A DNA stretch of 64,000 nucleotides from a virus, in IMG/VR virus record IMGVR_UViG_3300043427_001988, positions 4,927 through 68,926 of that record; one strand, 5' to 3'. Position numbers and translations under genes: made by a program. Within the stretch, counting starts at the first letter, position 1. The number at the start of each line of letters is the position of its first letter. Positions 163 to 47,123 of this stretch are shown here, piece after piece. The notes under the pieces are model-generated. The model was given only the letters and a program-made list of their open reading frames with translations, made no database searches and was not told the origin of the DNA.

Positions 163-193
163 ACGTCGCTCTCCTTAACTTGCTTACATAGTA

Positions 194-248: not shown

Positions 249-322
249 AATCGGGGCTTGGGGCACCCCCTACCCCCTAAAACCCCTTACACTTTCGTGC
301 AAGGGGCTAGAGGTGTAAGTGA

Positions 323-1045
323 TTAGTGATACTTGAAACCGATTACACGGGGCGTTGTAAGGCTTGGTAATGCGCTAGGAGCGCACAAGCGACACGCTAC
401 ACATTTTACAGTACCCTGTGTAATCTGATTTGGGCAAATAACTAACTTTGCCCCGCCTAACATATCCGGTGTAGGAATATTTTTTACATTTACCGCCAAC
501 GTCGTAAGCCATCCTAATGCACGGGCAAGCCGTACTTCGTCTGCTGTATCACATGAAGCCATAAACCATTTTTTGAGCGGTTGCAATTCATCTAACATCC
601 AGCCGTGAGTGTATCCGATACTTTTTACACCGATTGCATCTAATTGTTCACACGCCCACACTTGTGCATCAATATACTCTTTACTTGGCTTATCGTTCTC
701 AAACACATCACCGCTAACATGCCAGCGTACCATTTGTACACGTTTAGCCGCAGTTACGCCCTTGCCTTTATCAGCGTTGCGTAGCGTCATAAACTTTGAC
801 ACTTCTACCCGTAACTTAAGAGCATCTACCATACCCGATTTTGCCTGCTGTAAATTAGTGCGCCCTTTTTTGGTGTAACAGATAGTCATACGCCCGAATG
901 CTTGACGTTTTGCCTCACCGTACTCGTTAGGCTCGGGGTGATACATACACGACGACGGGCAAGAATCACCGGTACGGTTGTATGTTACTGCTACTGATTT
1001 GTCGGTTGACAGTTTCGCATCGCCACTATTTACTACAAACTTCAT
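323..1045 (-). CDS. Cys-rich phage protein, GP88-like (possible Fe-S protein)
   Basis: SCPSSC..CY, RWHVSGD, YTHGW, ASCD, CPNQ..CVACRLC motifs resemble the GP88-like phage family; AGGAG RBS. Confidence 0.6.
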   Translation of the reverse strand: MKFVVNSGDAKLSTDKSVAVTYNRTGDSCPSSCMYHPEPNEYGEAKRQAFGRMTICYTKKGRTNLQQAKSGMVDALKLRVEVSKFMTLRNADKGKGVTAAKRVQMVRWHVSGDVFENDKPSKEYIDAQVWACEQLDAIGVKSIGYTHGWMLDELQPLKKWFMASCDTADEVRLARALGWLTTLAVNVKNIPTPDMLGGAKLVICPNQITQGTVKCVACRLCAPSALPSLTTPRVIGFKYH

Positions 1046-1244
1046 AATCGTTACTCCTCAATCACTTACATATATAGTATAACATACAAATACCCAAAGT
1101 AAAATGAGAGAATGATGAGAAGCAACACTTTACACCCTTACACCGGCCAGGGCTTTGTGATGCGGTGTTGGCCCTGGGTGGTGTAAGGGGGCCTGTGGGC
1201 GACCCCCTACCCCCTAATTCAAAGTGAATTGGGGGCTGTGGTGA

Positions 1245-1499
1245 CTAGTCGTCGTATGCAGGGTCTGTACCGTCTTGATGAAAAGTCATTCCTACTCGAT
1301 TGTAGTTACCGTTAACAAACTCAATGTGTTGAGTAATACGAAAATCAGCGGTTTGTAGCCACTTATCTGAAAATGGTATCAGCAGAAACTCGTAACCATC
1401 CTCATCCAAAAATCGAATACCATCCTCAACGACAACCAAGCGGTAATCGTGGGTATGTTCCTGCCGACTTACTAAGTCACCTCGGTTAAAGAATGTCAT
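1245..1499 (-). CDS. hypothetical early protein
   Basis: ORF with GAGG RBS directly behind cassette promoter 1529-1557. Confidence 0.75.
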   Translation of the reverse strand: MTFFNRGDLVSRQEHTHDYRLVVVEDGIRFLDEDGYEFLLIPFSDKWLQTADFRITQHIEFVNGNYNRVGMTFHQDGTDPAYDD

Positions 1500-1528
1500 A
1501 ACAACCTCGCTTACTAACTTATGTATTA

Positions 1529-1583
1529 AGTATACCGCAAACTAGTGTATCTGTCAACAACAAGTTTATGAGAGTTTTCTCAT
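1529..1583 (-). promoter_or_regulatory. sigma70-type promoter with palindromic box
   Basis: TTGACA 1557-1552, 17 bp, TATACT 1534-1529; ATGAGAGTTTTCTCAT at 1568-1583. Confidence 0.9.
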
Positions 1584-1622
1584 TTGACGTGCTGCACGGC
1601 CTGGGGCACCCCCTACCCCCTA

Positions 1623-1844
1623 CTACGCTGGATTACCCAGGTAGTAGTGGACTTCATATACATCTATCAATTCCCCGTTTTCGTCGAGTGCCTCAAAGTG
1701 ACCGTCTACACGCTCTAGTTCATTTTCATAACAATAATCCGCACAATACATATCCGAACGCAATATAAAATCATCCATATCATTAATAGTAAAATCATCC
1801 ACCAACATCAAATCTTCACCCATATACGCACGTACTGTAATCAT
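1623..1844 (-). CDS. acidic hypothetical early protein
   Basis: ORF; AAAGGA RBS before MITVRAY; stop abuts the G-box repeat. Confidence 0.7.
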   Translation of the reverse strand: MITVRAYMGEDLMLVDDFTINDMDDFILRSDMYCADYCYENELERVDGHFEALDENGELIDVYEVHYYLGNPA

Positions 1845-1857
1845 CTGCTTATCCTTT

Positions 1858-2226
1858 CTACCATACCTCATTATTCCAGCGTGGATAGGTTAACCATCGA
1901 CGAGGCTCAAAACGCTCATCCAGTAATTCCTTCCCAAATACTGCTATTGAATCAATAACATCTTCATCTTCTTCCCCAAAGTATGCACAAGCGACTACCT
2001 TATTCCACTCTTCGGCGTAATAGTGATTCTTCCCTACAATCAGTTCGTATACATCGGGAAATTGTGCATACTCATAACCATGCACGAAAAACTTAATATT
2101 ACCTACATGACGCACAAGATGACGAACACGCCCACCGAGTACCATACGTGCGGCTTCAATTCGCTCTTCCACGCTCATCTGCTGTACCAAACGCATCACA
2201 TTCTCTAGGCTCATTGTGTACTCCAT
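1858..2226 (-). CDS. hypothetical early protein
   Basis: ORF behind TGnTATAAT promoter at 2244-2252. Confidence 0.75.
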   Translation of the reverse strand: MEYTMSLENVMRLVQQMSVEERIEAARMVLGGRVRHLVRHVGNIKFFVHGYEYAQFPDVYELIVGKNHYYAEEWNKVVACAYFGEEDEDVIDSIAVFGKELLDERFEPRRWLTYPRWNNEVW

Positions 2227-2371
2227 TTCTTGATTACATAGGTATTATAACACACTTTTGATAACTGAATTATGAGAACAAGATTAGAAAAACGGATTTT
2301 CAGTTTTCAGTTTTCAATTTTCAATTTTACTTGACTTTTTTCGATTTTCGGGTTACCCCCTACCCCCTACG

Positions 2372-2404
2372 CAAAAAGCCCCCGCTGATTACTCAACGAG
2401 GGCT
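2372..2404 (-). terminator. probable intrinsic terminator
   Basis: Minus strand AGCCCTCG...CGGGGGCT followed by TTTTT, downstream of ORF 2421-2837. Confidence 0.55.
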
Positions 2405-2420
2405 ATATACATTGTACACA

Positions 2421-2837
2421 CTAGGGAATAGCAAACCGAGAGCGATACCCTTCAATACCTAACTGCTCCGGCACACCTTTACTAATCAGTTCCTCAAACG
2501 AAACCGAGTGAGAGTATTGTACCTTCTCTGCTTCCGCATGGTAATGGTATATCTCTACCGTCTGCGTTGACCATGTGATTACAGGCAATTCACGGTACTC
2601 TGATTCGGGTAGAAACCGACCATACAACGACACACCACCGCCGAGCGTTGATTCATAACTGTTGATGATAGCATTCAACGCAATACGATTTGCATATGAA
2701 TAATCACTCCATCGCCCACTAGCCTGCACAACGGCGTTTTGTGCATCTACCATAGGATGCTTGCCCCAATGTGCATACACAAACATGATAGGCGACATCT
2801 GCGTATCACGAATACCCACTACTACACGATTACCCAC
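2421..2837 (-). CDS. conserved-type phage hypothetical protein
   Basis: MGNR...YAHWG N-terminus typical of a widespread phage family; GAGG RBS. Confidence 0.75.
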   Translation of the reverse strand: MGNRVVVGIRDTQMSPIMFVYAHWGKHPMVDAQNAVVQASGRWSDYSYANRIALNAIINSYESTLGGGVSLYGRFLPESEYRELPVITWSTQTVEIYHYHAEAEKVQYSHSVSFEELISKGVPEQLGIEGYRSRFAIP

Positions 2838-2880
2838 TAGCGCACCTCTTTCTATCTCTTACACAAGTATTATACCACAA

Positions 2881-3147
2881 TTAAAAATAGCGGTCAATCA
2901 TATCTTCGTAATCTTCCCCACGCTCATACTCCGAGATACGGTACTTAATACCCTCTGATTCAGCACGGTTAAGAAACTCCGGCGCATCACAATCCTCTTC
3001 GAGATACCACGTACTACCGACACAAACACTAAAACGAGTAGGCTTGAAACTGACACGCTCAACGAGAAACGTGGGCACTTCCAAATACCCGTGACGTGGC
3101 GTGCTTGAGAATACTAGACCGTAGATTACTTGTTGTGTGTTGCTCAT
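2881..3147 (-). CDS. phage hypothetical protein (STPxHG...LEEDCD type)
   Basis: Motifs STPRHGYLEV and WYLEEDCDA; AAGGAG RBS. Confidence 0.75.
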   Translation of the reverse strand: MSNTQQVIYGLVFSSTPRHGYLEVPTFLVERVSFKPTRFSVCVGSTWYLEEDCDAPEFLNRAESEGIKYRISEYERGEDYEDMIDRYF

Positions 3148-3353
3148 TTGGCAATTACTCCTTAACTTGACTACATAATTATTATACCAGACTTTTATGA
3201 GAATGGGGTGAGAGAATTTTGGGTTCCTGGACCAGGACCAAGGTAGTGCAGCGACGGCCTCACAAATGCCCCTAGAAATTTATTAGAGCGACGATAGCCC
3301 CAAAGTAGGGGGGCTGGGGGGTACGCCCCGAAGGGCTTGTTGTCAAGTGGTTT

Positions 3354-3587
3354 TTAGAGCAAATCTACCTCATTTGAACTAATCCAGTGCCCAACGTTAT
3401 TACGGTAATCCACCACGGCTATAAGCATTTCTTGAAGGTCGTTTAATGTGTATGTAAACTTTTCTACTGTTTTATACCATTCCAGCACATCGTTTGATGT
3501 AATTTCCAAAAAACAATGATTTTGAGTAATTTCGATGGTCAATGTGTATGCTTTGTACTCGGTAGTGACTTTATTAGTCCACATCAT
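3354..3587 (-). CDS. hypothetical early protein, paralog A
   Basis: GAGG RBS; similar to 3717-3965 (MWT...Y.L.I.ITQ...VVD....WI.SN.VD.L). Confidence 0.8.
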   Translation of the reverse strand: MMWTNKVTTEYKAYTLTIEITQNHCFLEITSNDVLEWYKTVEKFTYTLNDLQEMLIAVVDYRNNVGHWISSNEVDLL

Positions 3588-3618
3588 AACGCACCTCACT
3601 TAACTTGATTACATTAGT

Positions 3619-3673
3619 ATTATAGCGCAGGTAATAACCCGTGTCAAGAGGAAGTAGATGAGAGTTTTCTCAT
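3619..3673 (-). promoter_or_regulatory. sigma70-type promoter with palindromic box
   Basis: TTGACA 3647-3642, 17 bp, TATAAT 3624-3619; box at 3658-3673. Confidence 0.9.
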
Positions 3674-3716
3674 TTGACAAACGCCCCGGTCTGGGGCACC
3701 CCCTACCCCCTATCGC

Positions 3717-3965
3717 TTACAACGTGTCTACATCATTTGAATGAATCCATACCTTGAAGTTGAGGTAGTTATCAACTACCTTCATTAATAGTGCTTGTGC
3801 ATCTTCTAAGGATGCATCGCCACGGTTAATTATATGTGAAAATACCGGCGGGCTATCATATTGATTTGGTGCATCAATGAATAGGATATAATCCCGCTGA
3901 GTAATCACAATTTCCAAATTATACAACTCATAATCCCGCGATGCTCTCACTGTCCACATGTCCAT
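3717..3965 (-). CDS. hypothetical early protein, paralog B
   Basis: GAGG RBS, own promoter near 3998-4025; similar to 3354-3587. Confidence 0.8.
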   Translation of the reverse strand: MDMWTVRASRDYELYNLEIVITQRDYILFIDAPNQYDSPPVFSHIINRGDASLEDAQALLMKVVDNYLNFKVWIHSNDVDTL

Positions 3966-4021
3966 GATGTACCTCACTTAATTTGATTACACTAGTAGTA
4001 TACCATGAACCTAAACCAATG

Positions 4022-4234
4022 TCAATAAGTTTGTGAAATCCGCTGTAATTGACCGTCTGCATCAACGGTAAAATCAAAAGCGTGGGAATCTAAATCAATA
4101 AAATCATCACCAAAATCTGTGGGCGTGTAGGTTATTGAACTTAACACTGCACCATCTTGAGCATAGGCAGTTACGTCAAAGGTATCAAATCCACGAATAT
4201 GAACTTGGATGCGAACTTGTTGAATCTGGCTCAT
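4022..4234 (-). CDS. hypothetical early protein
   Basis: Start revised to MSQIQQ, behind GGAG RBS and promoter 4271-4299. Confidence 0.7.
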   Translation of the reverse strand: MSQIQQVRIQVHIRGFDTFDVTAYAQDGAVLSSITYTPTDFGDDFIDLDSHAFDFTVDADGQLQRISQTY

Positions 4235-4270
4235 GTCATTAACTCCGTTACTTAACTTGATTACATTAGT

Positions 4271-4325
4271 AGTATAAACGATATTCATACTGTTGTCAAG
4301 AGCAGTTTTATGAGAGTTTTCTCAT
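4271..4325 (-). promoter_or_regulatory. sigma70-type promoter with palindromic box
   Basis: TTGACA 4299-4294, 17 bp, TATACT 4276-4271; box at 4310-4325. Confidence 0.9.
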
Positions 4326-4389
4326 TTGACAAACGCCCCGGCCTGGGGCACCCCCTACCCCCTACGCAACGAAAAAAGACCCGCCCTGA

Positions 4390-4557
4390 TTACCAGGGCA
4401 GGTCTGACAAGTCAACAATCGGACTAGTATCAGCAGGGATAATTACATCTTGCTCATCAATCCACTGCTCCCACACTTGCTCAAAGTCGGGGGCGATTTC
4501 GTCAACTTGCTCATCCATCATGAAGTCGGTGAGGAAGATAAGTGGTAAGTTTGGCAT
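4390..4557 (-). CDS. small, highly acidic protein
   Basis: Start revised to MPNLPL behind AAGGAG; D/E-rich; own promoter near 4588-4616. Confidence 0.7.
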   Translation of the reverse strand: MPNLPLIFLTDFMMDEQVDEIAPDFEQVWEQWIDEQDVIIPADTSPIVDLSDLPW

Positions 4558-4612
4558 TTCGCATCTCCTTAACTTGATTACATACGTAGTATAGCACACA
4601 TTGAAACCGGTG

Positions 4613-4858
4613 TCAAGTGAGTATTTTTTCAATTACCACATACGGGGCAATAAACATACATACATCACTTGGTAACATAAGATGTAATGAAACAGTATCT
4701 TTATTTTGCACATATGCAACCATCTCGGCAATCTCACGGGCACGCTCTTCTGTAATCGTAGCCGCAATACGCTCATCTTCGGTTAATTCAATACGCCCGA
4801 CAATCTCGCCGTTGTGAGTGATTTTGATGTGTGTCCACGGTGCAAGTGTGTTGCTCAT
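4613..4858 (-). CDS. hypothetical early protein
   Basis: Start revised to MSNTLAPW behind AAGGAG. Confidence 0.75.
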   Translation of the reverse strand: MSNTLAPWTHIKITHNGEIVGRIELTEDERIAATITEERAREIAEMVAYVQNKDTVSLHLMLPSDVCMFIAPYVVIEKILT

Positions 4859-4888
4859 TTCGCATCTCCTTAACTTGATTACATTAGT

Positions 4889-4943
4889 AGTATAAACGAT
4901 ATTCATACTGTTGTCAAGAGTAGTTTTATGAGAGTTTTCTCAT
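4889..4943 (-). promoter_or_regulatory. sigma70-type promoter with palindromic box
   Basis: TTGACA 4917-4912, 17 bp, TATACT 4894-4889; box at 4928-4943. Confidence 0.9.
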
Positions 4944-4979
4944 TTGACAAACGCCCCGGCCTGGGGCACCCCCTACCCC

Positions 4980-5081
4980 CTAGTCCTCGTCGAAAAGTTC
5001 TGATTTAATCCGCCCGCTAATTACTAAAACAAAACCCACAATACTTACATAACCCATATAAACCAAAATCATCTCTAACAT
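4980..5081 (-). CDS. 33-aa single-pass membrane peptide
   Basis: MLEMILVYMGYVSIVGFVLVISGRIKSELFDED*; AAAGGG RBS; stop abuts G-box; not in ORF track. Confidence 0.6.
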   Translation of the reverse strand: MLEMILVYMGYVSIVGFVLVISGRIKSELFDED

Positions 5082-5101
5082 AGTACACACCCTTTCTATA
5101 A

Positions 5102-5234
5102 TGGTGGAGATGTCGGGAATCGAACCCGAGTCCAAAATGCTTTACACCATTGAAGGTAGGCGGTTTTCGCGTCTTACCGTGGGCAGTTATCACTACTCAC
5201 CGCCAAAACACCCTGTCAATACCGTGTCATCCCC
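5102..5234 (-). ncRNA. ssrA: miniature tmRNA (tRNA-like domain with very short insert)
   Basis: 5' GGGGATGACACGGTATTGAC...GGACTCGGGTTCGATTCCCGACATCTCCACCA 3'; acceptor stem with G3-U70, no D stem, P2-like helix, T arm, encoded CCA; only 133 nt. Confidence 0.85.
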
Positions 5235-5471
5235 TTATTGCAAATCCAGCGTATTCGTCACAGGATTAAAGTAGCGCACCGTTTTTGAGCCTTTAGCAAA
5301 CAACGGGTTACGAATTGGGGCACTAATTAACCACCGCCCATCATCCTGTGCAATAATCGAAAAATCCTCTAATCGTTGACCGCACATCTTCATCTCACGG
5401 TGTGAGAAAAACAGAGGATGATTCTCTTTGGTCAATCGCTTAATCTCGTGAATCGTTGGTCGCTTGTTCAT
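5235..5471 (-). CDS. phage hypothetical protein
   Basis: ORF with GAGG RBS behind promoter 5503-5531; stop directly abuts the tmRNA 5' end. Confidence 0.8.
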   Translation of the reverse strand: MNKRPTIHEIKRLTKENHPLFFSHREMKMCGQRLEDFSIIAQDDGRWLISAPIRNPLFAKGSKTVRYFNPVTNTLDLQ

Positions 5472-5502
5472 CGTGTCACCTCTTATCTAACCTTATGTAT
5501 TA

Positions 5503-5557
5503 AGTATACAGCACAAATACCAGCGTGTCAAGAGCAATTTTATGAGAGTTTTCTCAT
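5503..5557 (-). promoter_or_regulatory. sigma70-type promoter with palindromic box
   Basis: TTGACA 5531-5526, 17 bp, TATACT 5508-5503; box at 5542-5557. Confidence 0.9.
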
Positions 5558-5593
5558 TTGACAAACCCCGCGGCCTGGGGCACCCCCTACCCC

Positions 5594-5809
5594 CTATCGC
5601 TGAATATGCTCATATTTTGCTTCACATTGTTTACAAATATGTTTCACCCCGACGTTACCATCATAGAAACAATATTCATAAAAGGTATAAAAGCCTGCTG
5701 GGAAAGTAAACACCCGCAAATTATACTCTTCTTTACCACACGCCTGACAATGCGTATCAAAATATCGCTCAAGCCGACCATCATCACCGATACGTAGTTT
5801 AGCCTCCAT
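5594..5809 (-). CDS. small zinc-finger protein
   Basis: CQAC...CKQC; AAGGAG RBS. Confidence 0.75.
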   Translation of the reverse strand: MEAKLRIGDDGRLERYFDTHCQACGKEEYNLRVFTFPAGFYTFYEYCFYDGNVGVKHICKQCEAKYEHIQR

Positions 5810-5991
5810 AGCACACTCCTTAACTAACTTACAAGTACATTATAACACACATTCATACTGAGTTTTATGAGCGCAAGATTAGAAAATCAAATTTTGAATT
5901 TTAGATTTTGAATTTTCAATTTTAAATTTTAATTTTTCTTTTAATTTGACATTTTTTGAAATTCGGGCTACCCCCTACCCCCTGAACGCCA

Positions 5992-6168
5992 CTACGAGTA
6001 GTAGCGTTCGACCAACTCTTCACCATTTGCCCCGATGAAGTAGAGCAGGAACATAGTTTTCGGCATCATGACTTTGAGCAGTTGAATAGTCAACAGTGCC
6101 TTATCCAAGCCCTCTACATCCATTGAGCCGTTCCCGTGAGCGTATTCCATCTTGATGCGGTATGTCAT
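5992..6168 (-). CDS. 58-aa hypothetical protein
   Basis: MTYRIKMEYAHG...ERYYS*; AAGGAG RBS, TATAAT at 6203-6198; not in ORF track. Confidence 0.7.
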   Translation of the reverse strand: MTYRIKMEYAHGNGSMDVEGLDKALLTIQLLKVMMPKTMFLLYFIGANGEELVERYYS

Positions 6169-6300
6169 ATCAGACTCCTTACTTAACTTATGTATCTATT
6201 ATACACCAAAAAAGTACGCTGTGCGCGACTTTTCATGAGAATTAGATGAGAAAACAGGGGGGCTGGGGGGTGCGCCCCGAGGGGCTTTTTGTCAAGCGGG

Positions 6301-6714
6301 CTACTCTTTTGGTATTGGATACCAGCCAAGTAGTTTACCTGATTCATCACAAGTAAACATGTAACCATCAGCGGATAGTCTATCCAAATCACTTGCGATT
6401 TCTTTCCAAAGTGATACCCAATCTTCTTGAGAGATTTGCTCTACATCGGTTACATCATTCTCAAGATACGTAAAAACCCGCCCCAACATATTATCTGACA
6501 AATACCTACATGAAATATCCACCAAATCAGGAATAGGCAAGTCAATAGGCGCAAACATACGATTAGCAAACATAGCACTCTGCTCCTTTTTTACTGAATC
6601 TGTAGCCTTTGATGATACTGAACATTTCACAAGTACCGGTTGCTTTGGTACAAAAGAATCCCGCACATCGTTATTCAACCACTCTTGCAATTCACTAATC
6701 GTCATATCACTCAT
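6301..6714 (-). CDS. hypothetical early protein
   Basis: Start revised to MSDMTI behind AAGGAG; TTGACT/TATACT promoter near 6740-6768. Confidence 0.75.
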   Translation of the reverse strand: MSDMTISELQEWLNNDVRDSFVPKQPVLVKCSVSSKATDSVKKEQSAMFANRMFAPIDLPIPDLVDISCRYLSDNMLGRVFTYLENDVTDVEQISQEDWVSLWKEIASDLDRLSADGYMFTCDESGKLLGWYPIPKE

Positions 6715-6904
6715 AACATACTCCTTACTTACATACATAAGTATACACGAAATGCAGAAAAAAGTCAAACGCAAAAAAAAAAACTCCCCGACGCTGGGCC
6801 GGTGTAGTGGGGAAATGGCCTATACAGGAAATCTCTCGGAGCTGGACCGGAGTAGTGGCCCCTGCGGTTATCTATACGACCTTCAAAAAAAAAAGGGCGT
6901 TTTT

Positions 6905-7035
6905 CGGGGGCGGGGGCGCGCGCGTTATGTCAAGTTGTCGGGGCGTGTAGCGGGGCGGGGCGTGTAGCGGGGCGGGGCGTGTAGGGGCGTTTGGGGGCGT
7001 GTAGCGGGGCGGGGTAGGGGTAGGGGCGGGCGGGT
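6905..7035 (+). repeat. G-rich tandem repeat (GGGGCGTGTAGC/GGGGC units), G-quadruplex-prone
   Basis: More than ten G3-G5 runs in about 130 bp. Confidence 0.85.
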
Positions 7036-7587
7036 TTACCATGATGTGACGTAGTGATACCCTACACAACAATCAATACACGAACCACAATATGCACATG
7101 TTTCACCCGTCAAACAATCGAAACAATCAGTACATGTACAATGATAGCGGGTATCGTTGCATCGTTTGCATTGTAATTCACTACGGTATACATCTGTTAT
7201 GTATTGCGGGGTTTGACGGTATGCAATTACATCGTCTACTACGTAGTGAACCAATTCATTTACGATAAACGCTATAGACGGTTTACGGTGTGTACGAACG
7301 GGGGCGTAATTCATATGTAAACCCGTTTGGTAGTATTTGGTATTTAACGCCCGTACATATCCAAACGTATCATAGTGAACCGTTGCATAAATATGCGTTC
7401 GTTCAATTATGCCAGGTATCGTATACAGCGTATGTAACGCCCCGTTATGGTACGTATGTGCGGGTAAATCAATATTGATAGATAACGCCCCGTTCGTATC
7501 ACGGTGAACCCCTACGCTATACCCCGCAACAATCGTATTAATATAATCACCCCAAACCGTTCGTTTGATAGAATAATTCCTATTCAT
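7036..7587 (-). CDS. hypothetical protein with Cys-rich C-terminus
   Basis: CKRC..HCTCTDCFDC..CAYCGSCIDCC. Confidence 0.75.
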   Translation of the reverse strand: MNRNYSIKRTVWGDYINTIVAGYSVGVHRDTNGALSINIDLPAHTYHNGALHTLYTIPGIIERTHIYATVHYDTFGYVRALNTKYYQTGLHMNYAPVRTHRKPSIAFIVNELVHYVVDDVIAYRQTPQYITDVYRSELQCKRCNDTRYHCTCTDCFDCLTGETCAYCGSCIDCCVGYHYVTSW

Positions 7588-8068
7588 GATTAACCCCCGA
7601 TACAGTATTAATAAACTTACGAATTGAATTGATAGATAAATCCACGTTCACAGAGTAGGGTAGTAACAGTAGTATTTGCTGCGGGGTTAATACATCACGT
7701 TGCAACGAATTACATTTACTACAATCTACATACAAATTGAACGGGGTTAAATTACCCCCGAATATTCGGGGTATCTTATGACATATTGCAAGTTTATCAC
7801 CCCCGCAATTTATGCATTTGGGGCGTTCGGGTAAATCCAAACCGAACCGTTTGCAATTATCGTACACGCCCCTATGTGGTAAATGTTTAAATGATGTATC
7901 ACCCCCGATACTACCCGCTATCAAACCGTTATGCTCTAATAGGATTACATCATGATAGCGTTTATTAAAATCGGTAATTATTGCATCTGTAAGATACATA
8001 GATAATGCATCAAACGCCCCGCCCCCGTTTAATAAACGGTTCACTAGAATTAGTGGTATTTTCATCAC
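7580..8068 (-). CDS. HNH endonuclease-like protein
   Basis: CINC...ICHKIPRIFGG...NLYVDCSKCN matches the zinc-bound HNH pattern. Confidence 0.7.
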   Translation of the reverse strand: MMKIPLILVNRLLNGGGAFDALSMYLTDAIITDFNKRYHDVILLEHNGLIAGSIGGDTSFKHLPHRGVYDNCKRFGLDLPERPKCINCGGDKLAICHKIPRIFGGNLTPFNLYVDCSKCNSLQRDVLTPQQILLLLPYSVNVDLSINSIRKFINTVSGVNHE

Positions 8069-8658
8069 TCACCCCGCAAATTATCTGTATGAACGCCCCG
8101 TTTGATATATTCATAACGCCCCGAACCAAACGCCCCCGCTACATATTCGGTATGTTTGAATAATCGTAAATCGGGTATACGTAAACGAACCGCTACGCTA
8201 TCACTATTCACAAACGCATTATCAATATAGATGTAATCAATAACGGTATTTGTATCGTCTACCATATCCAAACGTAAACGATTTAACGCCCCGCTATTCA
8301 ATTCAATATTAATAATGCATTCATTCGGTAATAGATGATTTACGGGGTTATATTCATACCCGTAAAATATCACCCGATTATGATTATTAAATCGAACCCG
8401 TTCGTTAAATTGTTCTATTGCATCGTGTAGCGTGTAGTGGTTCGTTGTATCGTATAAATACCCCCCGTCGTTTACTACGCTAGTATGAAACAAATCACTA
8501 TAAGAGTAGCAGATGATTTGTAGTGTAGCGGTTTGGGTTTGTGCTACTGCAATAGCATTAACGTCAATACCCCCGTATGTTGTAACAATACGATATGTAA
8601 TACTTGAATAATCTACCCGTTCACCATTTGCATAAATATGCGTTCGTTTGTTAATCAC
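8065..8658 (-). CDS. hypothetical protein
   Basis: Start revised to GTG 8658 behind AGGGG RBS; the ORF-track extension is repeat DNA. Confidence 0.7.
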   Translation of the reverse strand: MINKRTHIYANGERVDYSSITYRIVTTYGGIDVNAIAVAQTQTATLQIICYSYSDLFHTSVVNDGGYLYDTTNHYTLHDAIEQFNERVRFNNHNRVIFYGYEYNPVNHLLPNECIINIELNSGALNRLRLDMVDDTNTVIDYIYIDNAFVNSDSVAVRLRIPDLRLFKHTEYVAGAFGSGRYEYIKRGVHTDNLRGE

Positions 8659-8727
8659 TACGATACCCCTATCAATATAATAGCGGGGGCGTATATCACC
8701 CCCGCAACGAACCCGCTGCAAACCGAT

Positions 8728-8743
8728 TGTTTCACGTGAAACA
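8728..8743. promoter_or_regulatory. parS: parS site (chromosomal consensus)
   Basis: Exact TGTTTCACGTGAAACA. Confidence 0.85.
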
Positions 8744-9124
8744 TTAACCCCGTTTGATTGTTGTAATCAATACGTCTAATGCATCACGGGTATTTTTTGC
8801 ATCATTCGAATATGTTTGTAGACGTGCTACTAATGCATTATTACGTTGAATTAACCCCCGCAACGTTTGTTTGTATGAACGTCGTAATTCTATATCGTAC
8901 CATTTGGTATCAATAAGTAGACCGCTGATAATAGTAATTTGTTTCGTTACATCGTTCAATTCTACGGTGTCAACATGGGTAAACCGTTCGATAGTTTGTA
9001 GCACGTCTAGTGTAGTACCAAATGTTGCAATTTGTAGCGGGTTCATATTCTTAACCCGTTCGTTCAATACCCGCTTATATTCGCTAGAATTAACCGGTTT
9101 ACGTTGCGTTTGTTTGTTATCCAT
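8744..9124 (-). CDS. hypothetical coiled-coil protein
   Basis: ORF with AGGGG RBS; stop abuts parS. Confidence 0.75.
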   Translation of the reverse strand: MDNKQTQRKPVNSSEYKRVLNERVKNMNPLQIATFGTTLDVLQTIERFTHVDTVELNDVTKQITIISGLLIDTKWYDIELRRSYKQTLRGLIQRNNALVARLQTYSNDAKNTRDALDVLITTIKRG

Positions 9125-9138
9125 TGTGAACCCCTATT

Positions 9139-9225
9139 CTATACTAATGCTAAAAATACAAATACTGCTATCACCCAAACATACACCCATACACAAACCC
9201 AAAAAATAAACGTCAAATTATCCAT
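9139..9225 (-). CDS. 28-aa hydrophobic membrane peptide
   Basis: MDNLTFIFWVCVWVYVWVIAVFVFLALV*; same AGGGGTTCACAATGGA start context as neighbours; not in ORF track. Confidence 0.7.
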   Translation of the reverse strand: MDNLTFIFWVCVWVYVWVIAVFVFLALV

Positions 9226-9293
9226 TGTGAACCCCTATCAATATAATAGCGGGGGCGTTTATCACCCCCGCAACGAACCCGCTGCAAACCGAT

Positions 9294-9309
9294 TGTTTCA
9301 CGTGAAACA
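9294..9309. promoter_or_regulatory. parS: parS site
   Basis: Exact TGTTTCACGTGAAACA. Confidence 0.85.
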
Positions 9310-9310
9310 A

Positions 9311-9595
9311 TCACCCACGGTGTCCAAATGTGAACCGGTGTATGTACACCCCGTCGTATTTACCATGTTTGATTAACTTGCGTACACGGTGTATTAACTT
9401 ACGTGCTACCAAATCATCACCCCGTAACAATGCGTTATATGCATCATCTAACAATCTACGTAATCTACCATAATAATCGTATACGTACACCTCATTTACC
9501 CCCAAATTGTAATCATCACATGCACGTTGTAGCATGATACCCGTTGTAACATGTAAGAGAAACAAACGTTTACCTAATTCACTAATGCTATTCAT
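9311..9595 (-). CDS. hypothetical protein
   Basis: ORF between repeat copies; AGGGG RBS. Confidence 0.75.
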   Translation of the reverse strand: MNSISELGKRLFLLHVTTGIMLQRACDDYNLGVNEVYVYDYYGRLRRLLDDAYNALLRGDDLVARKLIHRVRKLIKHGKYDGVYIHRFTFGHRG

Positions 9596-9663
9596 TCGAT
9601 ACCCCTATCAATATAATAGCGGGGGCGTTTATCACCCCCGCAACGAACCCGAACCGAACCCAT

Positions 9664-9679
9664 TGTTTCACGTGAAACA
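9664..9679. promoter_or_regulatory. parS: parS site
   Basis: Exact TGTTTCACGTGAAACA. Confidence 0.85.
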
Positions 9680-9680
9680 T

Positions 9681-9860
9681 TTACACCATTGACCATTGCA
9701 TAAACGCAACATAGCGGGGCGTATCGTATACACCCGCCCGTACATACCGAACGTATGGAACGCTATCACCCATGTACCATGTAGCAGTACCGACAATCAC
9801 CCCGCCCCGTACCAATTGAATGATGTATGCATCGCTATACATCGTATGTTTGTAATCCAT
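9681..9860 (-). CDS. 59-aa hypothetical protein
   Basis: MDYKHTMYSDAYIIQLVRGG...WSMV*; AGGGG RBS; fills the gap between repeats; not in ORF track. Confidence 0.7.
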   Translation of the reverse strand: MDYKHTMYSDAYIIQLVRGGVIVGTATWYMGDSVPYVRYVRAGVYDTPRYVAFMQWSMV

Positions 9861-9928
9861 TGTGAACCCCTATCAATATAATAGCGGGGGCGTATATCAC
9901 CCCCGCAACGAACCCGAACCGAACCCAT

Positions 9929-9944
9929 TGTTTCACGTGAAACA
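9929..9944. promoter_or_regulatory. parS: parS site
   Basis: Exact TGTTTCACGTGAAACA. Confidence 0.85.
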
Positions 9945-9946
9945 AT

Positions 9947-10219
9947 CTATAACCCGTTGCGTTTGTCGGTATGGTATATCATTGTTTGAATGTATACCAA
10001 ATCTAGAATTGACGGTTTACGCTTGTTTTCAATAATGCGTTCACCGTAGCACGTCGTAATAGCGTATGGGTTATGTACCGTTTTGTATACCGTGATGTAA
10101 TAATCACGAACGTACACGAATGTGTAGATTGTTTCATTGCCGTTCACGTCGTTAACCGTTAACGTCGTTGCGGGTGAACCGTCAAACGTCGTATTACCCC
10201 AAATCAAACCATGCTCCAT
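9947..10219 (-). CDS. hypothetical protein
   Basis: ORF between repeat copies; AGGG RBS. Confidence 0.75.
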   Translation of the reverse strand: MEHGLIWGNTTFDGSPATTLTVNDVNGNETIYTFVYVRDYYITVYKTVHNPYAITTCYGERIIENKRKPSILDLVYIQTMIYHTDKRNGL

Positions 10220-10286
10220 TGTAAACCCCTATTCATAATAGCGGGGGCGTTTATCACCCCCGCAACGAACCCAAACCCGAACCGAT

Positions 10287-10302
10287 TGTTTCACGTGAAA
10301 CA
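10287..10302. promoter_or_regulatory. parS: parS site
   Basis: Exact TGTTTCACGTGAAACA. Confidence 0.85.
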
Positions 10303-10323
10303 TTTACCCGAACCCGAACCCAT

Positions 10324-10339
10324 TGTTTCACGTGAAACA
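10324..10339. promoter_or_regulatory. parS: parS site
   Basis: Exact TGTTTCACGTGAAACA. Confidence 0.85.
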
Positions 10340-10567
10340 TTTTCACGTATTGACGGGCGGCATTTACCGATACAATCGGGTATTACGCCCCCCCCGTCTA
10401 TTGAATTGTCAATGTACCGTGATAGCGGGGGTTCGTTTACGCTACGTTTACCGTATGGGGGCGTTCGCAGTAGCCAAACCGTGAACCCCCCCGAACCCAT
10501 ATCACCCGCCCGTATCGGCGTGGACACCCGCCCGTATGGGGGCGGGGCGTAATTTAACGCTACGGGT

Positions 10568-10632
10568 ATTGTAACAAATCCAATACCCCCGTGCCAAAAA
10601 ATAGATTAACGTTTGATGAGAGAATTATGAGA
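10568..10632 (-). promoter_or_regulatory. probable promoter of the island operon, with TCTCAT direct repeat
   Basis: TTGGCA-18-TACAAT with extended TG; ATGAGA at 10616 and 10627. Confidence 0.6.
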
Positions 10633-10769
10633 AAAAACACTTAAAACCGTTTTTATTCATATTTTCTTAACAATCCAGGGGTAGAACAAATGTGCTACTT
10701 TTTGGGGTACGGACTATACACAGACCCTCAAAAATTTTTAAAAGCCTCCCCTTCCTTTTTACCCCCAGG

Positions 10770-10845
10770 AACCCCACATAAACCCCACATAAACCACCAA
10801 GAACCACCAGAGAACCACCAGAGAACCACACATAAACCACACAAT
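10770..10845 (+). repeat. about 11-bp tandem repeat (AACC(C/A)C..., 7 copies)
   Basis: aaccccacata x2, aaccaccaag, aaccaccagag x2, aaccacacata, aaccacacaata. Confidence 0.85.
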
Positions 10846-10864
10846 AAAAAAGAAGAGGAGCATG

Positions 10865-11218
10865 TTACTGCTCCTCCTCCGTGCTATTATTCGTATGTCT
10901 GCTCATGCGCAACCGCCGCTCTTCTACCGGCCTGGATAAATATTCTTCTCGCACATATTCATAGGGAACGTAATCAAGTAATCCCTTCGGGTCATCAAAC
11001 GACGTAGGGCTATTCAGGTGTTTGCGTACATACCATTTCAAATCGCGAGATGGTTTGAGATTAAGCACGGTCATCGTAGGGCCGTAGTGTACGCGTACTT
11101 CTTTATCATCCCAGGCCATGAAATACCCTGCACCCCATCCTTCTTTTGGTTTATAGAATTCTATCCAGCGTTCTTCAATACTCCCGCCGATAACAACGAC
11201 TTTACGAAATAAACTCAT
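10865..11218 (-). CDS. hypothetical protein
   Basis: Start revised to MSLFRKV behind GAGGAG. Confidence 0.7.
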   Translation of the reverse strand: MSLFRKVVVIGGSIEERWIEFYKPKEGWGAGYFMAWDDKEVRVHYGPTMTVLNLKPSRDLKWYVRKHLNSPTSFDDPKGLLDYVPYEYVREEYLSRPVEERRLRMSRHTNNSTEEEQ

Positions 11219-11468
11219 CGCGCGGTGCTCCTCGGTAATTGACGACGATAGTGTCGATAAAGAGATACCAGAAGTATATGGCAGTAACCTCGGCGGGAAG
11301 GAAGCCGGTGGTATCAAAAAAGGCCAGGACGATACTCGCCGACCAGGTGTACCGCCAGAGCAAAAAGGGGATTTGTAAGAGAAAGATAGGGCTCGCCAAA
11401 TCGGGCAACCAGTCATAGGCTACGGCAAGGGCACTAGACCCGAGCGCAAGAAGTAGGGTTGCCACCAT
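11202..11468 (-). CDS. small membrane protein
   Basis: Hydrophobic segments from MVATLLLALG; start uncertain. Confidence 0.55.
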   Translation of the reverse strand: MVATLLLALGSSALAVAYDWLPDLASPIFLLQIPFLLWRYTWSASIVLAFFDTTGFLPAEVTAIYFWYLFIDTIVVNYRGAPRDEFIS

Positions 11469-11977
11469 GAAGCCTGTACGATAAACGAGTCTGGTTTCAT
11501 CTCCAGCTGCATCGTAATAAAAAACGAACTTGTATTGGTAATCCGCAAGTCTTGCTCTTGCGTTGCTGAGCCATCCATGTTCCATATTGATACGTTGTCC
11601 TGTCGTTCTACCTCTAAGAGAGGAGTGGAATGAAGGGGAAACTCACGTTCCAGGCCAAATACCCGCGCGAGTTCTGCGTAGCGTGATGCTAAATCACACC
11701 ACCCACCGCCATAGACTCCCCCAGCGGTGATGAGTGGGTACATATCGGGATGACCGACCGTACCGTTAAAAGACCAGGTTTCTCCTGGCGCAATCGTGAC
11801 TGTTTCCAAGGGAGGAACAATCAGCGCAATATTGGTATCTCGCTCATGTCCACGCAGGATTGGCGTGGCCGTATAGACCACCTGGCGCGGAATGAGGGAG
11901 AGGATAAAAATAAGAAAAAATGTAATAAAGCTAGAGACGGCGTGCGTCGGTGACATAGACTTCCACGTCATTTTCAT
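11420..11977 (-). CDS. VanW-family membrane-anchored protein
   Basis: N-terminal TM; IAPGETWSFNGTVG and GGGWCDLAS match VanW motifs. Confidence 0.75.
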   Translation of the reverse strand: MKMTWKSMSPTHAVSSFITFFLIFILSLIPRQVVYTATPILRGHERDTNIALIVPPLETVTIAPGETWSFNGTVGHPDMYPLITAGGVYGGGWCDLASRYAELARVFGLEREFPLHSTPLLEVERQDNVSIWNMDGSATQEQDLRITNTSSFFITMQLEMKPDSFIVQASWWQPYFLRSGLVPLP

Positions 11978-12206
11978 CTTCGATACGTTTCCACAGGTCC
12001 ACGTCGAGGTGTTTCACAAAGAGCTGCAGTACATATGCCTTATCGGTGCGATTCGTAAACACCGGTACTTTTGCTTCTTTTTCAATGTGTTGGGTAAAGG
12101 CGCGAATTGCGGCGGGGTTTACCCAGTCTTGTAATTTAAGGGTAATCGTAATTACGTGATATGGTTTAATTTCCTTTCCTCGTTCATCTAGGAGCCGTGG
12201 TTTCAT
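11931..12206 (-). CDS. hypothetical protein
   Basis: Start revised to MKPRLL behind GGAGG. Confidence 0.65.
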   Translation of the reverse strand: MKPRLLDERGKEIKPYHVITITLKLQDWVNPAAIRAFTQHIEKEAKVPVFTNRTDKAYVLQLFVKHLDVDLWKRIEDENDVEVYVTDARRL

Positions 12207-12448
12207 AAAGCCTCCTTTGTATATTTTGGGTGTACCTGGTCTAATGCAACAACTTCCAGGCATGTTTCATTTTCATAAAATTCAATTAAATAGATAAATG
12301 GGTTTTCGGGTTTGCCCATGAGATAAAATCCGCCGTATCGTACTCCTACGCGTCCTTCCTGGGCGGGTAACTCTACAATACCGCGGAGTGCCCCATGGGC
12401 TTCCAGTTCATAGCGGTCGGTACATTGAAAGATATGGTTGGTGTTCAT
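12203..12448 (-). CDS. hypothetical protein
   Basis: ATGA-coupled ORF in operon. Confidence 0.7.
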   Translation of the reverse strand: MNTNHIFQCTDRYELEAHGALRGIVELPAQEGRVGVRYGGFYLMGKPENPFIYLIEFYENETCLEVVALDQVHPKYTKEAL

Positions 12449-12702
12449 AACTCCTCTACCTGTGTAATAATAATCCCTCGCCCGGGAAATGTCCGGTAGG
12501 TAATTAAGAACTTCCCGTCGCTATCTTCAAAAACGGTAGTATACTCATCTGGATACTTCGTGGAGATTTCGTATTGTATCCACATGCCGTCTGCTACAGG
12601 CTTAAAATCCCGATGCCAACCGGTTTCCTTAATATCGGATACGGTTCCGTATTCACGCAGTTCATCAAGGCTATTCACATGCATAATGATTCCTAGGTTC
12701 AT
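12445..12702 (-). CDS. hypothetical protein
   Basis: ATGA-coupled; weak similarity to 12699-12989 (S..EL..YG...LI.Y..F.G..II...VE). Confidence 0.7.
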   Translation of the reverse strand: MNLGIIMHVNSLDELREYGTVSDIKETGWHRDFKPVADGMWIQYEISTKYPDEYTTVFEDSDGKFLITYRTFPGRGIIITQVEEL

Positions 12703-12989
12703 GCTTTCTCCACATGTTCAACAATAATTCGATTTCCGGCGAATTCTTTATAGTAGATAAGAAGCTCCACGTCCCCTTGTAGTAAGTTCACAGTACCTTC
12801 GCCCATGAATCTATACAAGAACCCAAAGATACTATCGCTTAAGCCCATTCCATTAGGTTCAACGGGTCTTGAGTAAAGTCCTTCGTTAAAGAGATGGCCG
12901 TACCGTGCGAGTTCTTCCATACTCCTACATTTGCGAATAGCCGTTAGGTCTAAGTCATAAAATTGATTAGTGTCCAAGTTTTGCGACAA
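12699..12989 (-). CDS. hypothetical protein
   Basis: ORF in operon; AAGGAG RBS. Confidence 0.7.
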   Translation of the reverse strand: MSQNLDTNQFYDLDLTAIRKCRSMEELARYGHLFNEGLYSRPVEPNGMGLSDSIFGFLYRFMGEGTVNLLQGDVELLIYYKEFAGNRIIVEHVEKA

Positions 12990-13371
12990 TCTCCTTTCGT
13001 TTCACAGTGTAATAGTGAAACCCCTTAAAGCGTTCAAGACGCTCTCTAATTCTGCCGGTCAGGTAGGTAAACACCTCATTCGTGTGTAGTTCTCCCTTCC
13101 AGTTTCCCTCAACGCGTTTTCCTATCATCTTTGGTACGAGGGTATTATCCCCGTAGATTTCGATAAAGAAATCGCTTGTATCCTCGTAGTGAATATGCAA
13201 CCGGCGGAGCATTCTCAGGAGCATTGTAAACTCGCCCTGGTTACTGTCGCCAATTCCGTCCATATCAAACTTGTGGTGGTATAAAATAGTTTTTGGGGAT
13301 ACGTTATCAACATAGATAACATAGCTACCATGTTGCGTACCCCCATCAAAATAACAGATTAACTTCGTCAC
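12967..13371 (-). CDS. RNase H-like protein
   Basis: YFDGG, SNQGEF, IYGDN acidic triad typical of RNase HI. Confidence 0.7.
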   Translation of the reverse strand: MTKLICYFDGGTQHGSYVIYVDNVSPKTILYHHKFDMDGIGDSNQGEFTMLLRMLRRLHIHYEDTSDFFIEIYGDNTLVPKMIGKRVEGNWKGELHTNEVFTYLTGRIRERLERFKGFHYYTVKRKEIVAKLGH

Positions 13372-14525
13372 TCAGACTTGCCGGTAATACCGGAGAGCAA
13401 TTTCTTTTGATACCAGATTTGCTGTGTTGATGCAACCACCCCTGCATCAAGGAACGGCGTGCCATCCTGGTATACAAGTGGTCCCTTCCAAAGGGTTTTA
13501 CCACTAGCCAGCATCGCAATAAACTGGTCTAATGCAGCGTTTTCCGTAAAGGCCTCTCCGCGAGTAAAGCCGATACCATTTGTGTCCATACTGTCAAAGT
13601 CGTCCCAGTTTGGTGCAAACCATACAAAGTCTGGTTGGTATGCGCGGTTCTTTTGTGCGTCGGCAAGGCGCATGTACTCTGGGTACCAGTTAAAGTACGG
13701 AACACCAAGACATGCTTCAGGACCTTTCTCACAGGCTTCTGGGTGGTCATAGGGCAGTGAGTACACGTCCTTTCCATCAGCACGGTGCTTTGCGACTTGT
13801 ACCGCAACGTCTGGGGTGTCAATACCGCCCATGATAACATCGTGACCGGTAGATACAAAGTCCCCCACAATCGTTACGGGGTCAAGCGTAACACCTGGGA
13901 TATTAAACCAGAATCCTACCCATACGACATTAAACGAAAGTGGTTCGGTTTGCCCGCGGAGTGCAGTCCAGCAGTAGTTCGCGCCCAGGTAGGCCGAGTT
14001 GACAAGACGGCGGGTTTCGTCGTTAATGAGTGGCCCGACGTAGCCAATCTTACCGGTCTTCGTGGAAAGGGCTGCTGCACAACCGGCAATCATCTTGCCG
14101 TATTCCATCTGACCCATCACGTTCCCGAGGTTATCTGGAGCCTTTCCTGTGATACGGTCATCGCCTGATGCGTGAACAAACTTGATTTGGGGATGGGCAA
14201 GAGCCGCGTTGCGGGTGCCGTCCTTAAAGTCATCCGAGTTGGTGATAATCATGGTAGCACCCTGACCAATCAACTCCTCAATTACTTGCTCTACCTTAAC
14301 ATTGGGTCGGTCAGCTGGGTTAACCTTGTCTACATAGACGTACTTAATTCCCGCATCTTTCTCCACACGAAGCATGGCATCGTGGTGTGCTTGGCTCCAC
14401 CCGCCGTCGTTAATTGGCCCGACCAACACCATACCAATCGTGGTGGTCTGGGTTTCTGCGGGACTTGCCCCACAGGCCATGAGCATTACGGCGATAATCG
14501 CCATCAGTACTGTTCGCAAAATCAT
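13368..14525 (-). CDS. BMP-family (PnrA/Med-like) ABC substrate-binding lipoprotein
   Basis: Lipobox LMAC; VGPINDGGWSQAH, GKIGYVG, VWVGFWF motifs. Confidence 0.9.
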   Translation of the reverse strand: MILRTVLMAIIAVMLMACGASPAETQTTTIGMVLVGPINDGGWSQAHHDAMLRVEKDAGIKYVYVDKVNPADRPNVKVEQVIEELIGQGATMIITNSDDFKDGTRNAALAHPQIKFVHASGDDRITGKAPDNLGNVMGQMEYGKMIAGCAAALSTKTGKIGYVGPLINDETRRLVNSAYLGANYCWTALRGQTEPLSFNVVWVGFWFNIPGVTLDPVTIVGDFVSTGHDVIMGGIDTPDVAVQVAKHRADGKDVYSLPYDHPEACEKGPEACLGVPYFNWYPEYMRLADAQKNRAYQPDFVWFAPNWDDFDSMDTNGIGFTRGEAFTENAALDQFIAMLASGKTLWKGPLVYQDGTPFLDAGVVASTQQIWYQKKLLSGITGKSE

Positions 14526-16748: not shown

Positions 16749-17465
16749 TTACTCCACAGTGTGATGATGAGATAAAAGTGGCTCAAAGATATAGCCGAGG
16801 CCAAGTGCGTATCGCCACCGGTTATTTCCGGTAATCTCCTCACCAAAAACTACATCACCACCAAAAGAAAACACTGAGGAATTCTCTGGGAGTGTTGTAA
16901 TTACTTGGGAATTTCGTGTAGGACTTTTTCGTACATTCGTGCGTGTGTTAGTTTTATAGATAGTATATGGGCGTAAAAAGTGCTTCGACCAGTATGTAAA
17001 AAATTCGTCAGTAACCCCAGATGGGTCAATCTTTCTCCCTGGTGGAGTAGCGATGTAGCGGTGGGTAACTCTTTCTAAAAGAGGGAACTTACGCGCTAGC
17101 GTGGTGATACCCATCCACATCTCTCCAGTCCAAAACCCCTCGCCTGGCGTAAAGTGAACCTCTACACCAACTGCATGAGGATTTCCATATTTATTTAAGT
17201 CTCTGGTGCGTCCTGTATGCCACGCCATGTAGTTTGCAGGGTCAAGCATCTGTACTACCTCACCTTGTTTTGAAACAAGATAGTGTGCAGATACATCGGG
17301 GGAGTTTAAAAGAAAATTAAGCTCATTCTCAAACTTCGTTCCTACTCGTCCGTTCGTAGTATGGATAACAAGGCTTCGATATGGAATTGCGTTACTCCTC
17401 TGGCTGTACCCCGTCCCTGGCGGGAGGCGATTGTTCTTCTGGAACTCGGGGCGAACTATTATCAT
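16749..17465 (-). CDS. endolysin, N-acetylmuramoyl-L-alanine amidase with SH3-like domain
   Basis: VIHTT, VSAHYLV, AWHTG, GVEV, THR...RKIDP; C-terminal NVRKSP; start revised to MIIVRP. Confidence 0.9.
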   Translation of the reverse strand: MIIVRPEFQKNNRLPPGTGYSQRSNAIPYRSLVIHTTNGRVGTKFENELNFLLNSPDVSAHYLVSKQGEVVQMLDPANYMAWHTGRTRDLNKYGNPHAVGVEVHFTPGEGFWTGEMWMGITTLARKFPLLERVTHRYIATPPGRKIDPSGVTDEFFTYWSKHFLRPYTIYKTNTRTNVRKSPTRNSQVITTLPENSSVFSFGGDVVFGEEITGNNRWRYALGLGYIFEPLLSHHHTVE

Positions 17466-47115: not shown

Positions 47116-47123
47116 GAGATTTA

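Follow-up and report, generated by a model that had tools for sequence, protein, structure and literature searches.

Six perfect chromosomal-type parS sites in early intergenic cassettes of an uncultured ParB-less phage: a putative loading array for host ParB

Among the systems that organise bacterial chromosomes, ParB–parS is the most conserved. Its 16-bp site follows the consensus TGTTNCACGTGAAACA, which is common to Firmicutes, Actinobacteria and Proteobacteria; Bacillus subtilis has 10 chromosomal sites, Corynebacterium glutamicum also 10, and Hyphomonas 2 exact copies of TGTTTCACGTGAAACA (PMC7022226). Phages can take part in this system without a ParB of their own, as described for the virulent Bacillus phages phi29 and Nf, whose host-type parS sites are used through Spo0J (PMC2731898). 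For phi29 five sites are reported together with an involvement of Spo0J in prespore segregation and spore entrapment, and its promoters are repressed via Spo0A boxes (PMC2731898). The only studied case of a phage that exploits ParB–parS without own ParB is that of phi29 in sporulating Bacillus, and our literature search (supplements excluded) revealed no description of natural orphan parS for phages outside the phi29 family, most of the papers dealing with engineered parS/ParB labelling. Here, we describe a 64,000-nt stretch of phage DNA, called the window throughout (bases 4927–68926 of the 68,926-nt IMG/VR virus record IMGVR_UViG_3300043427_001988, estimated completeness 90%), which contains six perfect chromosomal-type parS sites at the head of an early operon.

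Plasmids and phage-plasmids (P1, N15, F with SopABC) possess their own ParA and ParB as well as their own site sequences. The first-pass annotation of the stretch had mentioned P1 and N15 with their different sites and had overlooked phi29 and Nf. Since these two already carry host-type parS used through Spo0J, the exploitation of host ParB by a phage is not new in kind. Already known, from phi29, is the ParB-less virulent phage with host-type parS; new are the form, with perfect sites densely packed into cassettes at the early promoter of a phage that is large and uncultured, and the apparent breadth of orphan parS across unrelated viral contigs. A different kind of hijacking is described for SGI1, which makes use of the parABS system of IncC plasmids (PMC10954446).

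A pattern search of the window retrieved TGTTTCACGTGAAACA six times with 0 mismatches in each copy, exactly where the first-pass annotation had placed them (Table 1). No further copies with up to two mismatches were found in the window and no others with up to three mismatches in the whole record. The chance expectation is 0.05 copies, and none of 100 shuffles gave six. All six sites fit the chromosomal ParB/Spo0J consensus TGTTNCACGTGAAACA without deviation (PMC7022226), so that their earlier identification as the consensus centromere of chromosomal ParB holds. In the stretch around the array every gene is located on the minus strand, and on this strand four sites indeed follow a stop codon at a distance of 0–2 nt, as had been proposed. 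The other two, whose starts are 37 bp apart, form a tandem pair in the leader that precedes the first gene. In our view the array is real and not a product of chance, and it probably has a function.

Each parS site is the first module of an intergenic cassette of about 95 nt, five repeats of which open the early operon on the minus strand behind a sigma-70-like promoter. The order of its elements is a stop codon, (A)AT-parS-AAT, a 21-nt GGTTCG-rich spacer, a 9-bp GC hairpin (GCGGGGGTGATAWACGCCCCCGC), TATTATATTGATAGGGGT and, after 5–6 nt, ATG or GTG, where TATTATATTGATAGGGGT represents a -10-like AT stretch combined with a Shine–Dalgarno (SD) sequence. When the five cassettes are aligned, all 16 columns of parS are invariant as compared to 52 of 69 in the remainder (naive P ~0.011). 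The first-pass annotation had described parS as invariant while the adjacent repeat bases vary, which is correct, but the GC hairpin is nearly as invariant (22 of 23 columns). The repeat is well conserved in general, with parS as one of its two frozen blocks. Repeated hairpin cassettes between early genes are familiar from other phages, namely the T4-type “PeSL” promoter–stem-loop modules and the RNase III sites of T7. The present cassettes, and also those of the related phages described below, are similar to them in having conserved stem-loops between small hypervariable early genes, but we know of no hairpin cassette of the PeSL or T7 type that carries a host centromere sequence. Integron-like gene cassettes, in which attC follows each open reading frame (ORF), were considered as well and rejected, there being no Phage_integrase match.

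The proposal that the DNA belongs to a phage is borne out by a tailed-phage gene set that includes large terminase, portal, DNA polymerase A, DnaB, a primase-like protein, RecA and a class II ribonucleotide reductase (RNR). Six-frame searches of the whole record revealed no match to ParB_N or HTH_ParB, none to the ParA-like AAA_31 at E ≤0.1 and none to a tyrosine integrase (Phage_integrase). The same profile models were positive in 10–14 of 14 control genomes (ParB_N in 10 of 14, from many phyla). The earlier remark that no parAB is in view extends in this way from the window to the entire record of about 90% completeness, and the search of the remaining genome for parA and parB that had been suggested found neither. 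An own parB and an own parA, which define a self-encoded ParABS locus of the P1/N15/plasmid type, are both lacking. No repressor-like family is among the families listed for the record and, judged from its gene content without integrase and parA, the phage looks virulent.

How this locus compares with the described systems can be seen best with phi29 (Salasmaviridae). Both phages lack ParB and have several chromosomal-type parS sites; phi29 is virulent and the present phage looks virulent. Our search of the phi29 record (L322) with up to three mismatches found exactly 5 sites, against 0.17 expected, four of them with one mismatch and one with three; four of the five read TGTTTCACGTGGAACA, in agreement with the consensus if N=C is taken on the opposite strand. 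In one case (17243–17258) the site separates the gene 16 stop codon (17242) from the bidirectional terminator TD1 annotated at 17262–17301, and this order of stop codon, parS and terminator, seen at one phi29 site, is that of all cassettes here. In contrast, the phi29 sites extend over 19 kb with four of five inside genes, whereas the six perfect sites of the present phage are confined to 1.6 kb and are all intergenic. Moreover, phi29 is a protein-primed podovirus of 19 kb that infects sporulating Bacillus, whereas here we deal with a phage of ~70 kb with portal and an intein-like terminase insert, without enrichment of Spo0A boxes, whose DNA is found in runs labelled freshwater or aquatic metagenome.

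With P1, N15 and F SopABC the array has in common the repeated cluster of centromere sites on an extrachromosomal replicon, but it differs from them in the absence of ParB_N, HTH_ParB and a ParA-like ATPase and in the site, which is the chromosomal consensus. The origin-proximal parS clusters of chromosomes consist of clustered copies of the same 16-mer but occupy tens to hundreds of kb in the neighbourhood of parAB and oriC, as opposed to 1.6 kb here. SGI1 is comparable as a mobile element that exploits the partition system of another replicon, but it is not a phage and is described as using the system of a helper plasmid and not the chromosomal one (PMC10954446).

The first-pass annotation had proposed to count parS in phage databases against expectation. 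In IMG/VR the perfect TGTTTCACGTGAAACA occurs in at least 119 contigs, and 26 of these 119 have 2–5 copies. As controls served parS read backwards (2 contigs) and a centre-swapped palindrome (39 contigs), and neither of them was ever found in multiple copies. A second natural variant, TGTTCCACGTGGAACA, was present in at least 120 contigs, three of them with two or more copies. By tblastx the 26 multi-copy contigs can be divided into 8 groups, all of them unrelated to the present phage. ParB_N is absent from all 26 (eight of them at least 90% complete), and among single-site contigs, where 50 of 93 were tested, one showed a weak ParB_N match below the cut-off. In five multi-copy records 18 of the 19 sites found at up to two mismatches are perfect. 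Tandem pairs with a distance of 26–37 bp are found in L006, L013, L020, L041 and L105 as well as in this phage. Group A comprises 13 loci; their genomes are small, and inverted terminal repeats are present in three. The one polymerase queried from this group (L105) shows ~35% identity to those of Clostridium phage HM2 and Amedibacillus phages, and the members of the group are read as phi29-like podoviruses of Bacillota. Group B contains 7 loci from phages of ~60 kb. Dense arrays are found in this group as well, with five perfect parS within 0.9 kb beside the terminase gene (L060, 10535–11462) and five within ~0.8 kb (L021, 2657–3444). Because unrelated phages without own ParB converge on exactly the same 16-mer, a conserved cellular binder would explain this pattern best, and the one known binder of TGTTTCACGTGAAACA is chromosomal ParB.

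The search with the terminase detected 23 related IMG/VR loci, most with 58–91% identity and two with 44–45%. Four larger records (G001–G004, ~70% terminase identity) have the structural and replication modules in common with the present phage. The small-gene region is hypervariable, with 3 of 26 crude ORF calls (window 1245–11416) having any tblastn match in these four. In the same early region the relatives possess their own lineage-specific repeated GC-hairpin cassettes between small genes, represented by ~24 copies of GGGGGTCTNAGACCCCC in G001 (1–13,400; L145) and by GGGGAGCTNCGGCTCCCC together with a second GC hairpin, repeated ~20 times, in G002 (45,900–57,700; L151). As the relatives have hairpin cassettes of their own but no perfect parS, such cassettes are a family trait and the parS module is confined to the present phage. 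ParB_N was found in none of five relatives, three of which are at least 90% complete. The hairpin pattern of the present phage occurs in no other viral contig and in one metagenome contig (L160). The latter was rejected as a carrier of the same cassette, being a chance match with a GC content of 0.69, no parS and no phage genes in common.

A further peculiarity concerns one hexamer. CACGTG has 6 copies in this genome, every one inside parS, and 1, 0, 0 and 0 copies in G001–G004. Because this hexamer is nearly absent from the relatives and is found here in parS only, the sites are kept against the family's own trend. Other palindromes are avoided as well: GATC is missing from the whole record (261 expected), and so are 13 palindromic hexamers (AGATCT, ATCGAT, GATATC, TGATCA, AGCGCT, CGATCG, CGTACG, GACGTC, GCATGC, GGATCC, TGGCCA, GGCGCC and GGGCCC). 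GATC is also absent from G003, G004 and 5 of 9 partial relative loci counted, and is present with 57 copies in G001 and 31 in G002. This palindrome avoidance suggests a host rich in restriction systems.

On balance we consider it probable that the six sites are a nucleation or loading array for host chromosomal ParB, placed in the cassettes that head the early operon. The first-pass annotation had supposed that the phage hijacks or titrates host ParB. Recruitment of host ParB is the best reading because phage ParB and ParA are missing, the consensus is matched exactly and multi-copy orphan parS recurs in unrelated ParB-less contigs but never in the controls; the single functions that had been listed along with it are indistinguishable on the basis of sequence. 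After entry of the early region into the cell, dimers of host ParB with bound cytidine triphosphate (CTP) would close on the six sites, slide outward and coat the early promoter together with the first early genes. The phage DNA would gain a centromere-like complex and could become a substrate for host ParA and SMC. Among the putative benefits we rank first the tethering or partition of the unintegrated genome when infection stalls (carrier state, dormant cells), which is favoured by analogy with phi29 and Spo0J. ParB-dependent damping of early transcription at the adjacent promoter would come second and titration of host ParB third.

Several points weigh against such a function. Binding is a prediction from sequence, and a host ParB of matching specificity is assumed. 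An unrecognised binder could be encoded in the missing ~10% of the genome. Perfect parS occurs in none of five relatives, one of which has a single palindrome with 2 mismatches; the array is accessory, because relatives at ~70% terminase identity manage without it. Furthermore, since the remaining cassette is also highly conserved (the 52 of 69 invariant columns mentioned above), recent duplication may account for part of the uniformity of parS. As regards a phi29-like benefit in particular, the genome contains 5 Spo0A boxes (TGTCGAA) against ~9 expected, with none in window 1–24,000, and the stretch is found nearly whole in runs labelled freshwater metagenome from two studies, which may be its source. 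Endospore formers are not known to be dominant in freshwater and aquatic habitats. A role in spore entrapment is not supported for this phage specifically.

Among the other explanations the one that survives best also involves host ParB. The array could act as a sponge used for sabotage, replicating genomes titrating ParB away from the chromosome so that SMC loading, segregation or ParA-linked replication control would be disturbed during host takeover. We think this rather unlikely, although the array is found in the hypervariable early, host-takeover region of a phage that looks strictly lytic (no integrase, no parA) and although six perfect sites, two of them in tandem, within 1.6 kb would maximise both affinity and number. 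Nothing separates a sponge from tethering or silencing, and the gain by titration is unclear because several species are listed in which parB is non-essential (PMC7022226). In phi29, the one precedent that has been studied, the sites are described as serving the localisation of the phage itself (PMC2731898).

Lower still in probability is an operator for an unrecognised phage DNA-binding regulator, encoded in the array, elsewhere or in the missing part of the genome, with the identity to parS being a coincidence or deliberate mimicry. The sites are part of regulatory intergenic cassettes behind the early promoter, and a coincidence with odds of 1 in 65,536 could occur when ~250,000 sequence windows are scanned. 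The five array proteins that were scanned (90, 59, 94, 126 and ~197 aa, the 28-aa ORF lying outside the scan) belong to no Pfam or PHROG family and two of them are basic (isoelectric points 9.7 and 9.8), which would leave room for a DNA-binding protein. However, no helix-turn-helix or ParB-like family was found for 57 small ORFs at E ≤0.05 among the matches listed (first 25 of 40 families). The model of the 94-aa protein is a plain helical bundle with a predicted local distance difference test (pLDDT) value of 66 and without match in the PDB at E ≤0.001. For the 126-aa protein the Atlas model resembles generic helical bundles only and the AlphaFold2 model (pLDDT 47.5) is unusable. In addition, coincidence leaves unexplained why the 16-mer is found in multiple copies in 26 unrelated ParB-less contigs and the two control palindromes never are.

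That the palindrome works at the level of RNA or transcription, ParB being uninvolved, appears improbable. In this case it would be a hairpin of the 3′ untranslated region which, together with the GC hairpin, serves in processing, stability or attenuation. The extended palindrome can indeed fold as an 8-bp hairpin beside the 9-bp GC hairpin (minimum free energy -31 kcal/mol, z -2.1), and in a consensus scan four of the five GC hairpins scored as terminator-like, with a stem-loop followed by a T-rich tract between early genes. The relatives have their lineage-specific hairpin cassettes without parS in the same region. But the z-score is modest, any AU-rich hairpin would serve equally well, and the exact parS in all six copies is left unexplained in a phage family from which CACGTG is otherwise purged. 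Finally, recombination or boundary sites of mobile early-gene cassettes, with the repeats as shuffling scars or substrates and parS as passenger, would agree with the palindrome directly after each small ORF and with the hypervariability of the region, but this is very improbable as there is no tyrosine recombinase, the extra parS of cassette 1 was duplicated without a gene and no reason is given for the exact parS identity.

If host ParB is loaded on the array, as favoured here, it would provide a general phage handle on host DNA segregation, on SMC loading and perhaps on gene silencing. The survey suggests at least eight unrelated groups of ParB-less viral contigs with perfect parS clusters. 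Tentatively, it is possible that orphan chromosomal parS arrays are a widespread convergent phage device beyond the phi29-like phages. Large virulent phages of non-sporulating aquatic bacteria might plug their early region into the ParB-CTP/SMC machinery of the host, leading either to a silent, partitioned carrier state or to crippled host segregation, and the site variant would track the parS of the host. With host ParB loaded in this way, parS content could mark non-lytic persistence (carrier state, dormancy entrapment) in virulent-looking phages.

Table 1. Features of the parS array and its surroundings (positions refer to the window; parS sites are numbered from the left)
Feature	Position	Strand	Description
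parS site 6	10324–10339		perfect 16-bp palindrome in the leader; first reached by leftward transcription
parS site 5	10287–10302		tandem with site 6; repeat family D3
parS site 4	9929–9944		2 nt past stop of minus-strand ORF 9947–10219
parS site 3	9664–9679		1 nt past stop of ORF 9681–9860 (-)
parS site 2	9294–9309		1 nt past stop of ORF 9311–9595 (-)
parS site 1	8728–8743		0 nt past stop of ORF 8744–9124 (-)
Cassette 1	10205–10345	-	two parS, GGTTCG-rich spacers, GC hairpin 10241–10263, TATTATGAATAGGGGT (SD), ATG of 90-aa gene
Cassette 2	9850–9950	-	parS, spacer, hairpin 9884–9906, TATTATATTGATAGGGGT, ATG of 59-aa gene
Cassette 3	9585–9685	-	hairpin 9619–9641, then ATG of 94-aa gene
Cassette 4	9200–9315	-	hairpin 9249–9271, ATG at 9225 (28-aa ORF 9139–9225); 126-aa gene next
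Cassette 5	8640–8749	-	hairpin 8683–8705, likely GTG start 8658 of ~197-aa gene ending at 8065
Sigma-70-like promoter	10568–10597	-	TTGGCA-18-TG-TACAAT, 10/12, extended -10, directed into the array; consensus match only
First early genes within the array	8065–10219	-	90, 59, 94, 28, 126 and ~197 aa

A leader of ~230 nt (window 10340–10560) separates the promoter-like site from the first parS and contains GC-rich repeats, namely CACCCGCCCGTA twice and a hairpin CCCGCCCGTATGGGGGCGGG. Five overlapping direct repeats with a period of 11 nt (AACCCCACATA-like, family D4; window 10758–10856) are placed between a terminator-like hairpin (10851–10880) and the early promoter-like site and could represent bent DNA, iterons or an UP-like element. 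Within the array the GTG at 8658 is the likely start of its gene judged from the SD spacing. The 28-codon ORF directly behind cassette 4 has its own SD and is strongly hydrophobic (MDNLTFIFWVCVWVYVWVIAVFVFLALV), so it may code for a small membrane peptide.

No cultured phage matches the present one at the nucleotide level. In a tblastn search of 50,697 phage records nothing similar to the terminase or to a 565-aa structural ORF was found, and the best phage matches of the portal, from Bacillus phages, reach only E~6e-4. The DNA polymerase shows at most 29% identity to Pseudanabaena, crAss-like or Thermus phages and the RNR ~40% identity to Bacillus phage PK2 and to Thermus and Nodularia phages. 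These weak enzyme similarities to cyanophages, Thermus and Bacillus phages, together with the broad avoidance of restriction sites, point to no particular host. Profile searches of genome contigs with the alignments of terminase (A2) and RNR (A5) found no relative. WhiB is present in none of five family genomes, and SD sequences of the AGGAG type are frequent in the genome.

A diverged variant of the phage was detected in run X5, labelled aquatic metagenome, from a third study, and its contigs break at the cassettes. In this variant parS site 1 is intact and a G>C exchange is found 3 nt away at 8725 (among the 40 of 308 differences listed). Runs X6, X7 and X9 match only the conserved right part (~10,680–12,000) as well as pieces of 24–53 nt at the parS sites, which we leave uninterpreted. 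No RNA run was among the listed runs that contain this DNA.

Further genes of the phage code for an N6/N4 methyltransferase, MazG, thioredoxin, glycosyltransferases and a Bmp/PnrA-like lipoprotein, and an ORF of 1857 aa without any Pfam family is regarded as the tape-measure gene solely on account of its size and location. The large terminase (window 18833–21436, minus strand, 867 aa) has an intein-like insert from Cys74 to His-Asn-Ser416 (alignment A2) with an Intein_splicing match below the cut-off (E 1.3e-4, residues 126–416), and this insert is kept in 10 of 10 aligned relatives. One tRNA-Arg(TCT) gene is located at 63082–63157 of the window on the plus strand. The substrate-binding lipoprotein (window 13368–14525, minus strand; Pfam Bmp, E 2.8e-17) has an Atlas model with a predicted template-modelling score of 0.89 whose Atlas neighbours come from four phyla; with 59–85% identity in the relatives it looks like an auxiliary gene.

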